Source: Parcubacteria group bacterium (GTDB taxonomy: Bacteria > Patescibacteriota > Minisyncoccia > Phycocordibacterales > UBA2135). From it: a stretch of 34,932 nt of DNA. The stretch's first letter is position 1. The number at the start of each line of letters is the position of its first letter. Made by a program: the position numbers and the translations under genes. Positions 18,333 through 24,002 of this stretch are shown one piece after another. The DNA is taken from contig JACQLS010000034.1 in assembly GCA_016204005.1 (NCBI GenBank), positions 1-34,932 on the forward strand. The letters are read 5' to 3'. The notes below the pieces were generated by a model. That model did no database searches, was not told the origin of the DNA, and saw only the letters and a list, made by a program, of their open reading frames with translations.

Positions 18333-20288
18333 TTAAAGATCGTCAATCTCTTGTAGTGATCGCTCCAGCCATTCGGTTGAATGTACAACCGGAATCTGAA
18401 GCGCTCTTTTGCGATCGAGATCAAGTGTCCCGAGGTGGACCGACTGAGGCGCTTGCTCCCACTTAAAGATGGCTCTGCTAAAGAGCGTCACGAAGCGTTT
18501 CACCCATTCCTTGAGCATGCCGGGCGCATAGCGCGACGCCATCTTGAGCAATTCTTCATCGGTCCAGGTGCTTCGAAGAACACTATATATCTCTTTCGGA
18601 GACATCTTTTCTCCCGCAAAAAGCGCGAAACATGCATCCAACACGGGGAATGGCATGAGGTCGTCTTCGTCCGCTTGGCCGCGAGCAAGCTCGGCTGACG
18701 CTTTTGTCGCGAGAAGTTCCTTTGCGATAGCGATATGATGTCGTTCTCCAATATAGCGGAGAAGCTCGATCACGATCGTCTTCGGCACATTTCCAATGAG
18801 TGAGTAGCCGCCCGAAAGATCCCCTCCTACGGTCGTATAGCCAACGGCCTTTTCCGACATGTTGCTCATCTGGAGGACAAGCCCGCCCGCGCTATTCGCC
18901 CAATTCCACATACGTTCCGCGCGAATGCGCGCTTGTATGTTTTGCTTGGTTAACGCCGTAACCTCCTCTCCGGGCGCAAGCATTGCTTTTGCGGCCTCGC
19001 ATTCGCGCACAAAGGCCTCTTCGATGGATTCTTCCTTAAAGGAGACTCCGAGCTCATCGGCAAGACGAGAGGCGATTGATTTCGTTTCTTCGGAATTGAA
19101 CCGAGTGGGCATGCTGAAGCACCGGATAAAAGAGCGTACGCGGTCTTTGTCTCCCTCGAAACGGCGGAGCGCGTAAAACCACGCAATGATGAGCGAGAGC
19201 GCGGAGTCCTTACCGCCCGACAGTGCAATGCCAATTGTGCGGAACGCGTGTGTTTTGCTGAAATAATCGAGACCCATGATCATCGCCTCGATCAGATCAC
19301 CGAAGAATTGCTCGCGGCTGTTACCGCCTGCGAAATTCGGAAGGAAAAAATTCTTGCTCGTCGGCACTGGATACTTATATGCGGATTGATTGGGATGTGC
19401 GCTCGTAACAACCACCACTTCGGTTGGAGCTGGCGCTTCCGCGCGTGCTCGATATGCCTCACGGTCTCGCCTCCACGTGGTGTTCTCAACACGATGCCGT
19501 GCCGTGCGGTCGAGATCAACAACTTGAGTTGCGATTCCCTCGCGCCATCGAGGTGCATCAAAGAGCATTGTTCCGTTCTGGTTCACGAATCCACCCCCGT
19601 CAAAAACGAGAGCGTCGTTGCCGCCAACCTGGTTCGCATACACAATCGTAACCTGGTTATCTGCCGCACGGGTGGCGATCATTTCGCGACGTGTTTGCAC
19701 GACGCCAATACGAAACGGGGACGCTGAAAGATTCAGTACCAGTTCGGCCCCGGCGAAAGACCGGCGACGCATGGGACCATCGGGAGTCCAGATATCCTCG
19801 CACACTTCGACCGCAAAGACTCCGAACGGGGTCTTGAAGAGCAGGTCTCCAAAAGGCACACCGTTTACTTCTCCCAAAAGCCCGGGCATTCCCGGTGTAA
19901 ACACGCGCCCTTCATAGAAAACTCCGTAGGTAGGAAGCTTCTCCTTCGGGACAATGCCCCATATTTTTCCAGCCGAGACGACGGCCGCCGCGTTGTATGG
20001 CTGTCCATCGTATACGACAACCATACCGACGACAAACACGGTTGGAAATTGGAAACCCCATGTTGCGTTAGCAAACGTCACTAGGGCATCCCATTGGCCG
20101 GAGACAAAGCTTGGCCATTGCACCAAATCTTCGGCGGGGTAACCCCCAATCACTTGTTCTTGGAAAACGCCAACTGTGCATTCTGCATTCGACATTTCGC
20201 GGGCTTTATCAATAAGCGTCTTTGTGTTCGACGTGAAAGCCCCTACGGTCGTGTTTATGGTGCCGATGCCGATTTTGATGAGTCGCAT
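18333..20288 (-). CDS. nadE: Glutamine-dependent NAD+ synthetase
   Basis: Nitrilase domain E-K-C triad (FQEQ, PKEKLP, EVCED) fused to a synthetase domain with SGGKDS, QNIQARIR, NMSEKAVGYTT. Confidence 0.95.
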   Translation of the reverse strand: MRLIKIGIGTINTTVGAFTSNTKTLIDKAREMSNAECTVGVFQEQVIGGYPAEDLVQWPSFVSGQWDALVTFANATWGFQFPTVFVVGMVVVYDGQPYNAAAVVSAGKIWGIVPKEKLPTYGVFYEGRVFTPGMPGLLGEVNGVPFGDLLFKTPFGVFAVEVCEDIWTPDGPMRRRSFAGAELVLNLSASPFRIGVVQTRREMIATRAADNQVTIVYANQVGGNDALVFDGGGFVNQNGTMLFDAPRWREGIATQVVDLDRTARHRVENTTWRRDREAYRARAEAPAPTEVVVVTSAHPNQSAYKYPVPTSKNFFLPNFAGGNSREQFFGDLIEAMIMGLDYFSKTHAFRTIGIALSGGKDSALSLIIAWFYALRRFEGDKDRVRSFIRCFSMPTRFNSEETKSIASRLADELGVSFKEESIEEAFVRECEAAKAMLAPGEEVTALTKQNIQARIRAERMWNWANSAGGLVLQMSNMSEKAVGYTTVGGDLSGGYSLIGNVPKTIVIELLRYIGERHHIAIAKELLATKASAELARGQADEDDLMPFPVLDACFALFAGEKMSPKEIYSVLRSTWTDEELLKMASRYAPGMLKEWVKRFVTLFSRAIFKWEQAPQSVHLGTLDLDRKRALQIPVVHSTEWLERSLQEIDDL

Positions 20289-20416
20289 GGTGTTCCTCTA
20301 GTTGTGGAAGGTGCGTATCTTTAAGAGCATCCGATTCGCACCGGAAGGTGCGCATGCGGGTGCTCTATAAGAAAGGGGAAGCGCTTCAGCTTCCCCATAT
20401 AGAACGAATGAAAAGA

Positions 20417-21715
20417 TCAAACAGTGGGTTGGGTGTCAAAGTCTTGAACACCGAAATCGCCCTTGTATCTCTCGATCTCGCGCTTCGGACCAGTTTCCTT
20501 GCCACGGTTATCGGAAAGTTTTACCGCAGGACGCCCAGCAACTAGAACCAACTTGCAAGCCATTGAGAAAGGTCCGAAGTCCGGTAATGGAGGGACGCAT
20601 CCACGGAAATCATTGCCGAAGAGCGTGCCCCAACCGTACCGATCAATGATCCTACCTCCAAACTCTTGATGCAGACGCGTCATGTCCGAGACATCTAAGC
20701 CGTCTGAAAAGACGCCGACTTTTTCGCGCGGGTCAACACCATGTTTCTTGAACCAGTCTATGTGAAGGTTACCCCCCACTGACGGATCACCAGAGTCCAG
20801 GCGGAAGCCGCGGCTCTCTTGGGCAATCCATGCCGGAGCGTGCTTCAGAAATTCGGGGGTCCTGTAGGTGTCAGCGAGGAATATGCGAAATTGCGGACCG
20901 TATAATTCATGCCAACGAGCAAGAGCTCTGTACTGGGAGTCTCGCCGTTCACCACCAGGACCGGAAAGGGCCGCCAGCGCCATAAAGACTTCATGCGCGA
21001 CTGTTCCGACAGCGGGAATGCCGTAATAAAACGCCATCCAAACATTTGAAGTCCCGACGAATTGCTTGGGCATAGCCTGTATCGCCGAACCAACAGCAAA
21101 CTTCTGCCACTTGAAGCTATGCCGACGACGATGGGAAAAATCACTCCAGAAGAGATTTGGATATCTCGAAAGTATGTCGAACTTTCGATGCAGCTTGCTC
21201 CCTGCCCGCGTCATCGCATTTACCCATTCATCTACTGTTAGACCCTTCATGAGATTCTTGTAATAGAGTTCGGAGACGACGGAGAGGGCAATGGTCTCCC
21301 ACATGGTGACCTCGACCCACTTGCCCGTGAAGGTGAGACGATACTGGTCACCCTCCCTCTTTAATTCGTAGGGCGGAAGCTGGAACCGCTCGAGGAATTG
21401 CAGGTATCTTTCTCCAAAGACATTTTTGCCATCTGCCTGCATGTCGCGGAGAAATTTGATCTCAATGGGCAGATACCGAAGATCGCGCTTGCGATCGAGG
21501 GCGTCATGCAACTCATTTTCTGGAATGACTTTGGCAAGCTTGACCTTTGGATCGCGAATAATGAGTTCAAACGTCACCGGAACATTCCCGTAGCCATTGA
21601 TAAGAATCCATTGACCCATAGTGAATTTATAGAGATCAACATCCAAAAGTGACTCTGGTTTCAGGTAGGGATTGCCATCGGGCTTTGTCTCAAAGTAATC
21701 CAAGCGTGCGTCCAT
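20417..21715 (-). CDS. pncB: Nicotinate phosphoribosyltransferase
   Basis: SLLDVDLYKFTM, DFSHRRR, GTSN, GTVAHE, DTY, RLDSGD, FSDGL, VKLSDN; start at ATG 21715 after AAGGAAAGGGG. Confidence 0.95.
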   Translation of the reverse strand: MDARLDYFETKPDGNPYLKPESLLDVDLYKFTMGQWILINGYGNVPVTFELIIRDPKVKLAKVIPENELHDALDRKRDLRYLPIEIKFLRDMQADGKNVFGERYLQFLERFQLPPYELKREGDQYRLTFTGKWVEVTMWETIALSVVSELYYKNLMKGLTVDEWVNAMTRAGSKLHRKFDILSRYPNLFWSDFSHRRRHSFKWQKFAVGSAIQAMPKQFVGTSNVWMAFYYGIPAVGTVAHEVFMALAALSGPGGERRDSQYRALARWHELYGPQFRIFLADTYRTPEFLKHAPAWIAQESRGFRLDSGDPSVGGNLHIDWFKKHGVDPREKVGVFSDGLDVSDMTRLHQEFGGRIIDRYGWGTLFGNDFRGCVPPLPDFGPFSMACKLVLVAGRPAVKLSDNRGKETGPKREIERYKGDFGVQDFDTQPTV

Positions 21716-21772
21716 CGCGGCCCCTTTCCTTTTTTGTTGTGTGAAGAACGTGCCTTTACTGTCTCTACCGCA

Positions 21773-21827
21773 GAGACAGTTGACTGCGCAGAATGTACAA
21801 TAAAAACTGTGCGCAGTCAACTGTCTC
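21773..21827. repeat. Perfect 18-bp inverted repeat enclosing a promoter-like sequence
   Basis: GAGACAGTTGACTGCGCA (21773-21790) / TGCGCAGTCAACTGTCTC (21810-21827); minus-strand TTGACT-17-TACATT lies inside. Confidence 0.85.
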
Positions 21828-21933
21828 CTTTCTCTATTCAAAGTCCTTCTCTAAGGACATCCGACCCATTCGGGTGCCCTATAGAAAAGTGGAGGTTATG
21901 ACCTCCACCTCGGTATACACGTCCTCTTAAAGA

Positions 21934-22506
21934 TCAAATCGTAGCCGGCTCACGCAACACGTCTTCAACCGTTGCGAACATTGCGCCGATAGCGCGCATC
22001 TCTTCGATAGCGCGCTCGCCATCACCATCCTTGAGGTTGACGGCACGACACGCGTCAGTGAGAAGCGTCACCTTGTGCCCGTGCTCGATCGCCGCCCTCA
22101 CCGTCGAAAGCACGCAATAGTCGGTAGCCAGTCCGCCAACATAGAGATGCTCCGCTTCCGGCCTCATGCCGCCGTCAAAGGCAGAGTAGTCATCCGCATC
22201 TCCAAGCCCCTTGGAGATAACCTGGAATCTCACGTAGCCGTTTGGCAGACGGAGGTCAGGGTGGAATTCGGCACCGCGCGTGCCCTGCACACAGTGTACC
22301 GGCCAAATGCCGCCGAACTCTGCAAAATGCTTTGTCTGGCGCGGGTGCCAGTCACGAGAAGCAAAGATGTCCCAACGATGTCTCACCGCAAACGCAATCA
22401 TGCGGTTAAGCGGCGGAACGACCTCGTGTCCATTGGGGACAGCAAGCGAACCGCCCGGACAGAAATCGTTCTGGACATCAACGAGTATGAGCGCTTTTCC
22501 CTTCAT
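21934..22506 (-). CDS. pncA: Nicotinamidase (isochorismatase family)
   Basis: VDVQNDF.PGGSL, DWH, WPVHCVQ, ISKG, GLATDYCV (D-K-C triad). Confidence 0.95.
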   Translation of the reverse strand: MKGKALILVDVQNDFCPGGSLAVPNGHEVVPPLNRMIAFAVRHRWDIFASRDWHPRQTKHFAEFGGIWPVHCVQGTRGAEFHPDLRLPNGYVRFQVISKGLGDADDYSAFDGGMRPEAEHLYVGGLATDYCVLSTVRAAIEHGHKVTLLTDACRAVNLKDGDGERAIEEMRAIGAMFATVEDVLREPATI

Positions 22507-22638
22507 GGTCTGGTCTCCTCTTGTTGCGGGTTGTGAATGGGCGCACAGGTCGCCCCGTGCCCGGACGCTAAAGCAGTCCGGACGGCTTCGCCCCTTCTCG
22601 AGGCAGAACCGTCCGTACTCCTTTCTCTAACTGCACAA

Positions 22639-22659
22639 TTAGTGTATAAGTTACACTTA
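22639..22659. promoter_or_regulatory. Putative NrtR operator upstream of pncA
   Basis: TTAGTGTATAAGTTACACTTA: AGTGTA-N5-TACACT palindrome with the GT-N7-AC core typical of NrtR sites. Confidence 0.75.
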
Positions 22660-22694
22660 CCACGTCCAAAAAAATAGTACAAGTGCTACCCAAG

Positions 22695-22723
22695 AATATA
22701 GAACACGCAACAACCAATGTCAA
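22695..22723 (-). promoter_or_regulatory. sigma70 promoter for pncA
   Basis: TTGACA-17-TATATT. A second candidate, TTGGAC-17-TACACT, overlaps the operator. Confidence 0.65.
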
Positions 22724-22726
22724 ACA

Positions 22727-23413
22727 CTAGAGGATCTCGATCGTCTTCATTTTTTTCGCCCGAAAAGAATACAGCTCCGCCGGACGGCTTGCCTGTCCCC
22801 TTCTCTCCTTGCCTGTCCCCTTCACGAGCCCAATGGCAAGAATCTTTTTCCTGAAATTACGCTTGTCCAGCTTCTTTCCTAACACAACCTCGTACACACT
22901 CTGGAGCTCGGATAACGTAAACTCACTCGGTAAAAGATTCTGCGCGATGTTCGTATATCCCAACTTTGCGCGAAGCCGTTCAACTGCCGTTTCCAAGATT
23001 TCGCGGTGATCATACGCAAGTGCAGGTGCATCTTTGACAGGGAACCAGGTAATATCCGCATACTCCTCCGTCGTCTTCAAAGAAAGCTTGGTGCTTGGCA
23101 CAAGGGCCGTGTACGCGACTGACACAACACGCCCGAATGGGTCACGGTCGACACGGCCAAACGTGTGGAGTTGTTCCAGATATACATTTCGTACGCCTCC
23201 CTTCTCTCGCAAAATGCGTTCCGCGGCATTATCGACGGACTCATTCGCCTTCACAAGCCCGCCGGGCATTGCCCACTTTCCCGTGTACGGCTCTTTCTTC
23301 ATTTTAATAAGGAGCACCTGGAGCCCGCGGTTTCGTACGGTAAAAAGCGCGACGTCGGTCGCAATCACTGCGTAATCATATTTTTTATACTTGCTTGCTT
23401 GGGGCTTTTTCAT
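22727..23413 (-). CDS. nrtR: NrtR-type Nudix-related transcriptional regulator
   Basis: Degenerate Nudix box (GGLVKANESVDNAAERILREKGG), LEQL.TFG..DRDP.GRVVSVAY, LAYDH, wHTH FTLSELQ..YE...DKRNFRKK. Confidence 0.92.
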   Translation of the reverse strand: MKKPQASKYKKYDYAVIATDVALFTVRNRGLQVLLIKMKKEPYTGKWAMPGGLVKANESVDNAAERILREKGGVRNVYLEQLHTFGRVDRDPFGRVVSVAYTALVPSTKLSLKTTEEYADITWFPVKDAPALAYDHREILETAVERLRAKLGYTNIAQNLLPSEFTLSELQSVYEVVLGKKLDKRNFRKKILAIGLVKGTGKERRGQASRPAELYSFRAKKMKTIEIL

Positions 23414-23966: not shown

Positions 23967-24002
23967 TTAGTGTATTCTATACACTTTATAGGCAGGTGTC
24001 AA
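23967..24002 (-). promoter_or_regulatory. Promoter of the adenylyltransferase-nrtR operon overlapped by a second putative NrtR operator
   Basis: TTGACA(23997-24002)-17-TAGAAT(23974-23979); operator TTAGTGTATTCTATACACTTT at 23967-23987. Confidence 0.8.

Follow-up and report, generated by a model that had tools for sequence, protein, structure and literature searches.

A conserved two-hairpin module at operon junctions in one family of Parcubacteria and its possible role in RNA processing

The closest described case to the element analysed here is the saeP-saeQ junction of Staphylococcus aureus. The accessible part of that report (PMC5449607) describes an RNase Y cut between two stem-loops, with partial rho-independent termination at the upstream one. 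The position of the cut, 6 nt upstream, is set by a double-stranded element (24 bp) on the downstream side, and the downstream fragment is stabilised. Here, we describe a repeated two-hairpin module between the nicotinamide adenine dinucleotide (NAD) salvage genes of a Parcubacteria group bacterium. Its first two copies lie in a DNA stretch of 34,932 nucleotides, called the window (contig JACQLS010000034.1 of assembly GCA_016204005.1).

Related cases are known from two other species. In the cip-cel operon of Clostridium cellulolyticum, intergenic stem-loops at the processing sites set the transcript ratios, according to the accessible part of the source (PMC4423207). The Bacillus subtilis data, in the portion of the paper available (PMC11780869), include a stabilising downstream hairpin, the effect of a bulge in this hairpin and a contribution of the stretch just 3′ of it. 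Both bodies of work, genome-wide in scale, back the principle in general terms.

The module consists of a terminator-like hairpin (T), a U-rich linker, a second hairpin (H2) and a purine tract. Judged by the available part of its report, saeP-saeQ is alike in being intergenic within an operon and in having a terminator-like stem-loop upstream of a double-stranded element a few nucleotides away, an arrangement present in 8/8 module copies. The hosts of the module also encode RNase Y and RNase J, and the sae result is a differential dosage of co-transcribed genes. However, the two share no sequence likeness, and cleavage of the module is only proposed. Also unlike in sae, H2 pairs with the terminator U-tract and is conserved in sequence at its base, and the module is repeated within one operon.

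The accessible descriptions of cip-cel (PMC4423207) and cggR-gapA (PMC11780869) share with the module that some stem-loops are terminator-like while the downstream genes are still transcribed, and that a 5′ hairpin stabilises the product. As described there, their stem-loops differ in forming no conserved sequence family and in giving protection mostly at 3′ ends.

Two broader classes can also be compared. T resembles intrinsic terminators in its GC-rich hairpin and the U-rich tail behind it, but this tail is interrupted, and T stands inside operons and is always coupled to H2. The rrn-type boxA/Nus systems and the processive antitermination RNAs resemble the module in their position inside an operon and in a partial string found in three copies only. 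In contrast, this string is not conserved in the module, and its structured part comes after, not before, the terminator.

Anatomy and conservation of the module

The module occurs in eight copies in five of the 11 genomes of one family. They are G000_A and G000_B in the genome of the window (G000), G001_A and G001_B in a second genome of the same genus (G001), G005_1, G005_2 and G010_1 in a second genus (G005 and G010), and one diverged copy in a third (G004). All eight keep the order of T, a 7-8-nt linker, H2 and the purine tract, and every one lies 15-32 nt past a stop codon in the direction of its operon. The preliminary description, drawn from the two window copies, had claimed a repeated, conserved and structured intergenic module, and this is supported.

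The window is contig C19 of an assembly with 632,713 bases in 43 contigs, 82% complete and with a GC content of 0.50. Its minus strand carries, in order, genes for an alpha/beta hydrolase, a cytidylyltransferase-like (nadD-like) protein, NrtR, pncA, pncB, nadE and IMP dehydrogenase (IMPDH). By their domains, NrtR is NUDIX plus NrtR winged-helix, pncA an isochorismatase (open reading frame, ORF, 21934-22506), pncB a NAPRTase, and nadE a CN-hydrolase plus NAD synthase. Copies A and B sit at the pncA-pncB and pncB-nadE junctions, at the minus-strand positions and with the sequence reported earlier. The parts of copy A and its surroundings are as follows.

21934-21936, minus strand: pncA stop codon TGA, from the sequence and the ORF with the isochorismatase domain; start of TGATCTTT
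21888-21909, minus strand: T_A, terminator-like hairpin rich in GC, GGUGGAGG(U)/(A)CCUCCAC, loop of 4-6 nt, by RNAfold
21881-21888, minus strand: U-rich linker TTTTCTAT (RNA UUUUCUAU), from sequence and fold
21854-21880, minus strand: upper stem of H2_A with a 7-nt loop, from sequence, RNAfold and pair counts
21844-21853, minus strand: purine tract UAGAGAAGGA (TAGAGAAGGA directly after the H2_A arm), pairing with the U-rich linker in the fold
21792-21820, minus strand: pncB promoter-like site TTGACT-17-TACATT, from a promoter scan; kept in G001 and G005

The arms of H2_A are AGGGCACCCG at 21880-21871 and CGGATGTCCT (RNA CGGAUGUCCU) at 21863-21854, and its upper stem holds one G-U pair and one C-A mismatch. 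The linker UUUUCUAU serves twice, as the tail of the terminator and as the 5′ side of the lower part of the H2 stem. This extended hairpin spans 21846-21889 with a minimum free energy of -22.4 kcal/mol (z -4.5). Copy B is built in the same way.

20417-20419, minus strand: pncB stop codon TGA, from sequence and ORF
20375-20396, minus strand: T_B, terminator-like hairpin GGGGAAGC, loop UGAAGC, GCUUCCCC, from a terminator scan and RNAfold
20367-20374, minus strand: linker TTTCTTAT (RNA UUUCUUAU), from the sequence
20324-20366, minus strand: H2_B, AGAGCACCCG, 23-nt loop, CGGAUGCUCU, from sequence and folds
20317-20323, minus strand: purine tract UAAAGAU, pairing with the linker UUCU in the fold
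20286-20288, minus strand: nadE start codon, 35 nt past H2_B, from sequence and ORF

The H2_B arms are at 20366-20357 and 20333-20324, again with the C-A mismatch, and the 23-nt loop contains a separate 6-bp hairpin. This loop carries an insert (20341-20356, minus) made of CGCACCUUCC and its complement GGUGCG, which G001 does not have. A 10-mer of the insert reappears just 3′ of H2_B at 20306-20315 (minus), and an alternative pairing of the insert with the nadE leader is possible.

T has the anatomy of an intrinsic terminator, a GC-rich stem-loop followed directly by a U-rich tract (T_B by the scan, the others by sequence and fold). The tails have 4-6 U per 8 nt, and a single long U run is interrupted in them (UUUUCUAU, UUUCUUAU, AUCUUAU). 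H2 has no U-tail. Both window linkers are 8 nt long, U-rich and end in UAU, so the T-to-H2 distance of exactly 8 nt noticed at first holds for them and widens to 7-8 nt across all copies.

In each of the seven copies folded, the minimum-free-energy structure lengthens H2 by pairing the linker U-tract with the purine tract. The extended hairpin forms in 7/7 with z from -3.6 to -6.2, and its predicted stem of 14-19 pairs contains a bulge and a mismatch. The arm consensus of the window copies is AGRGCACCCG and CGGAUGYYCU, and the arm spacing ranges from 4-5 to 23 nt among the copies. The C-A mismatch, described as conserved, is kept in six of the eight and is a C-G pair in G010_1 and G005_2.

Compensatory stem changes are present, as had been proposed from the two window copies. 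In the seven firm copies, 89.6% of the cells of the 11-pair upper stem are paired, versus 45.5% or less with the pairing partners slid out of register. Changes on both sides are seen in three pairs, which is matched by 23 of 500 shuffles. With G004 added as the eighth copy, the double-sided changes rise to five, matched by 0/500 shuffles, a comparison biased in that the G004 copy was picked by a structure-aware model. These pair counts prove a hairpin-forming palindrome and not which strand matters.

G001 has the same gene order as G000 with both modules present. Between the two, only 231 of 565 fourfold degenerate sites are equal (41%), and the neutral sites are thus near saturation. Even so, identity is 74% at junction A and 63% at junction B. 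The T stems, the linker, the H2 arms and the purine tract are almost unchanged, whereas the post-stop spacer and the loops are changed; the T_A stem sequence is kept in G001, G005 and G010. Because these blocks are kept despite the saturated fourfold sites, they are under purifying selection.

In the second genus, G005_1 lies between a 250-aa ORF (orf250) and a PP2C phosphatase gene, with G010_1 in the same position, and G005_2 comes behind the gene of a protein kinase and directly precedes the promoter-like region of pncB. The G004 copy has the same architecture between hypothetical genes; its E of 0.25 with the first model is at the chance level, and we counted it by judgement on its T hairpin, U-tract, C-A mismatch and purine tract. 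L029, a 99-100% identical duplicate of G005, was left out of the counts.

The operon around the copies of the second genus stands behind an NrtR-type box (G005, L009 2106-6459; G010, L027 on contig C13). It contains an isochorismatase-like gene, the 250-aa ORF, which has no Pfam family, the PP2C phosphatase and the protein kinase. In G005, this PP2C/kinase operon is inserted between NrtR and pncB.

The module is rare. Exact arm-pattern matches in the window are copies A and B only, both arms with up to two substitutions each recur nowhere else in the whole 632,713-base genome, and the covariance models give two sense-strand matches in G000. The search with such models, suggested at the outset, was positive in the same genus and a second one and pointed to the diverged G004 copy in a third, with no convincing copy in the rest of the order. 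A strict pattern matched three of 401 order genomes, all inside this family. A relaxed one matched ten stretches among the GTDB species representatives, of which G005, G010 and L029 are genuine and the other seven look like chance (coding context, no T hairpin), and 14 in the JGI metagenomes, none convincing.

With model R2, 151 order genomes gave three matches at the chance level (E 0.002-0.008) beside the two of G000. None is a module: two are ordinary terminator-like hairpins and one is in apparent coding sequence. Weak matches within the family, in G009, G008, G006 and G003, were rejected on inspection. A dispersed repeat of the REP/MITE type is excluded by the 1-2 copies per genome and the conserved operon junctions.

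No Rfam family matches the module, in line with the earlier claim of an undescribed element. At the gathering threshold, the window gave tRNA only, with the NAD+ riboswitch classes among the families covered, and four related loci gave no match. In E-value mode, 20200-22800 gave only sub-threshold nonsense matches to miRNA, sRNA and lncRNA.

Read-through and processing as a possible function

In four copies (G000_B, G001_B, G005_1 and G010_1), only 35-47 nt separate H2 from the following start codon. This leaves no room for a promoter, and the downstream gene therefore depends on the readthrough of T. A promoter scan of the window found no promoter-like site between pncB and nadE, confirming what had been said of copy B, so that read-through or processing is needed for nadE.

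The operon-end terminators past nadE, IMPDH, the G010 kinase and the G010 pncB all lack H2. The G005 nadE has its own TATAAT-like box, and there T is present and H2 absent. H2 is thus tied to the internal terminators, as it is absent both at operon ends and before this self-promoted gene.

The module is most likely an ordinary kind of operon control in a new local form, confined to one family. Tentatively, we read it as a leaky internal terminator with a hairpin for RNase-Y-type processing and 5′ stabilisation, an explanation that is possible and falls short of probable. T with its interrupted U-tract would be a partial intrinsic terminator, and the short upstream message would end in a protective 3′ hairpin. 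The polymerases reading through would transcribe H2, predicted to fold into an imperfect hairpin of 14-19 bp that takes in the U-rich linker.

An endoribonuclease would cut at or beside the T/H2 junction, RNase Y being the likeliest, with H2 as the downstream structural determinant. The downstream message would then begin with H2, which would shield it against the 5′-exonuclease RNase J. The net outcome would be a fixed, uncoupled dosage of the adjacent cistrons by selective RNA processing and stabilisation. We infer every step past the folding, from the termination efficiency, the cleavage, its enzyme and the strand to the dosage effect.

The enzymes called for are encoded. RNase_Y_N is above the cut-off in G000, G001, G003, G005 and G010, and RNase_J_C is in 4/4 genomes (G000, G001, G005 and G010). 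No RNase E/G turned up in G000, an assembly 82% complete. The family encodes RNase III; this and NusB were not found in G000, at the same completeness, and are adjacent genes in G001.

Several points weigh against the leaky terminator with RNase Y processing. A double-stranded linker is disfavoured by RNase Y, according to the available part of PMC11780869, and since the folded linker is double-stranded, RNase III would fit better. The duplex is predicted to have 14-19 bp, versus 24 bp given for sae in the accessible part of PMC5449607. A separate pncB promoter-like site follows three copies (G000_A, G001_A and G005_2), where no read-through is needed, and the A-type U-tails (UUUUCUAU) are not clearly weaker than those of some terminal terminators.

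The pairing is also equal on both strands, sense versus antisense being 89.6% versus 90.9% for the upper stem and 83.5% versus 84.2% for the extended one, and the C-A mismatch is a G-U pair on the opposite strand. The H2 base is conserved in sequence as well as in structure (UAUAGRGC/GCYCUUAG), which could mean a specific binding factor. Lastly, the runs matching this DNA are four groundwater metagenome DNA runs of one study, with no RNA run listed.

We chose the sense strand because T and its U-tract are sense-specific, because every copy comes after a stop codon and is oriented with its operon, and because no promoter-like site on the opposite strand points into copy B. Assigning the strand by counts of G-U versus C-A did not discriminate.

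The preliminary description had spoken of an antitermination or processing element that gates each step of the NAD operon. Processing is the half that we favour. Antitermination by H2 in the usual sense is impossible, because H2 is transcribed after the terminator and the U-tract. The gating of each NAD step is too narrow: four of the eight copies are away from NAD genes (two at orf250/PP2C, one after a kinase gene and one among unrelated genes), and the pncA-pncB junction of one relative is without the module.

To our knowledge, almost nothing is known about the post-transcriptional control in the Candidate Phyla Radiation bacteria, which have few regulators. If true, a leaky terminator joined to a structured hairpin would show how these bacteria set gene dosage within operons, and the module would offer a small cassette open to testing. 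Its wider importance is modest, since the principle is already established in Firmicutes and the element is confined to one family.

Other explanations

H2 may instead be the site of a specific RNA-binding protein that recognises the stem base, the flanks and the mismatch, making downstream read-through, decay or translation conditional, possibly on NAD or ADP-ribose. Indeed, paralogous copies and different genera share the sequence of the base and the flanks and vary at the top, the mismatch is kept in six of the eight copies, and 7/8 stand in loci with NrtR or an NrtR-type box. We nevertheless regard it as unlikely. No candidate protein accompanies the module, H2 has no pocket-like junction, being a plain hairpin, and two copies lack the mismatch. 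The stem base of the G004 copy is different, and with up to two mismatches allowed, no NrtR-type box lies within 8.7 kb of this copy.

Also unlikely is a terminator with an accessory hairpin only, H2 being a second barrier or pause site, a mask of the AU-rich tail from endonucleases or a linked remnant. H2 is under strong purifying selection with compensatory change, is no terminator itself because it has no U-tail, and is missing from the terminal terminators. On the other side, T with its U-tract scores terminator-like, H2 pairs with this U-tract, and tandem hairpins stand behind genes elsewhere in G000, for example on contig C41.

A lineage-specific punctuation RNA of operons is a rather more doubtful proposal. 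A dedicated factor, or RNase Y or RNase III, would read it via the stem base and the C-A mismatch, and it would conditionally set the dosage of those NrtR-regulon genes that follow an internal terminator (pncB, nadE and the PP2C/kinase pair). If true, NAD salvage in reduced-genome Parcubacteria would be under a second level of control, a post-transcriptional one.

At the DNA level, the imperfect palindrome could act as double-stranded or extruded DNA, either as a protein site or as a recombination or cassette boundary, which we consider improbable. The pair statistics are equal on both strands, H2 ends 29-33 bp before the pncB -35-like box in three copies, and the gene content between modules varies by genus. 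However, arms spaced from 4-5 to 23 nt apart are incompatible with a dimeric regulator, and RNA is favoured by an orientation that is strictly fixed with respect to T, the U-tract and the direction of the genes. With 1-2 copies per genome, there is no sign of mobility.

The NrtR operator is a 21-bp palindrome with a GT-N7-AC core, as given in the accessible part of PMC2330246. H2 does not fit it, its arms being 4-23 nt apart and the core missing, and the true NrtR-type boxes are elsewhere in the locus.

Very improbable is an antisense transcript as the functional molecule, with the conserved mismatch being a G-U pair. The antisense fold equals or betters the sense one for three of five modules, and the mismatch becomes U-G in five of seven copies. 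Against it, no plus-strand promoter-like site is directed into copy B, neither hairpin has a U-tail in that strand, and every copy has T and a U-tract specific to the sense strand.

The least credible, and almost surely wrong, is the boxA-like string TGATCTTT of the stop codon recruiting Nus factors for processive antitermination. In its favour, NusB is encoded in G001, G005 and G010, and the string is common to G000_A, G000_B and G001_A. Against it, the string is missing from the other five copies and overlaps the stop codon where the terminating ribosome sits, and the stop-to-T spacer is the least conserved part of junction B (G000 versus G001). In the rRNA leader of G005, a boxB-like hairpin precedes a boxA-like box, which the string matches at only 8/13 positions by hand count.

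Simpler identities of the sequence were rejected as well. A promoter within the module, conceivable as TATAG is enriched before the start codons in G000, has no -35 partner, a wrong last hexamer base and a variable loop and geometry. A small ORF across H2 fails because the loops of G000_A and G001_A differ by a 1-nt indel, which breaks any frame. The sequence TTTCT(T)ATAG, considered as a terminator tail in general use, has 29 genome-wide matches, of which only the two modules, one tRNA-adjacent terminator and one tandem-terminator site (C41) stand behind a hairpin.

Neighbouring signals of the locus

The gene behind copy A, pncB, was found in five of 61 related genomes, G000 counted among them. 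Its promoter-like site is enclosed by a perfect 18-bp inverted repeat at 21773-21827 (minus), whose core TTGACTRCG...CGCAGTCAA is kept in G001 and G005. Next, near the likely RNA 5′ end, comes a small hairpin, CUGUCUC-N-GAGACAG. The repeat and the hairpin may be the operator of a second regulator or a 5′ stabiliser.

A canonical anti-Shine-Dalgarno core CCUCC is expected at the 3′ tail of 16S rRNA. The only 16S gene found in the family, that of G005 (L051 1501-1515, minus), has the tail ...GGAACAAUUUCUAA without this core. Before the first ATG of 430 long ORFs in G000, the top-enriched 5-mers at 4-20 nt are TATACT-like -10 boxes, and AGGAG is enriched only about 3-fold before the start codons. 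This hints at mostly leaderless messages.

A motif YUCACA(CA)AC stands 15-25 nt before the pncA, pncB and nadE starts in G000 and G001, and not in G005. Its approximate positions in the window are 22530-22520, 21745-21735 and 20305-20298 (minus). It may be a CA-rich translation enhancer.

Two 21-bp palindromes of the window fit the NrtR operator core, both on the minus strand. The nadD-like gene has one at 23967-23987, which overlaps its -10 box and stands 1 nt upstream of the ATG. The second, at 22639-22659, lies between the -35-like and -10-like boxes before pncA. Equivalent NrtR-type boxes are found in G001, G005 (two) and G010.

The first gene behind each NrtR-type box has a leader of three successive hairpins. 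In the window, it is at 22507-22625 (minus) with the P2 hairpin at 22561-22581, and its relatives are L006 5332-5452, L007 5420-5550, L009 1895-2105 and L027 6133-6330 (minus). This leader is a candidate cis-regulatory RNA of the NAD-salvage operons, possibly a riboswitch, and may be more interesting than the module. Its middle hairpin is conserved with a loop beginning CUGCUU, and RNAalifold on the five leaders predicts 26 pairs, 18 of them changed on both sides, with no Rfam match.

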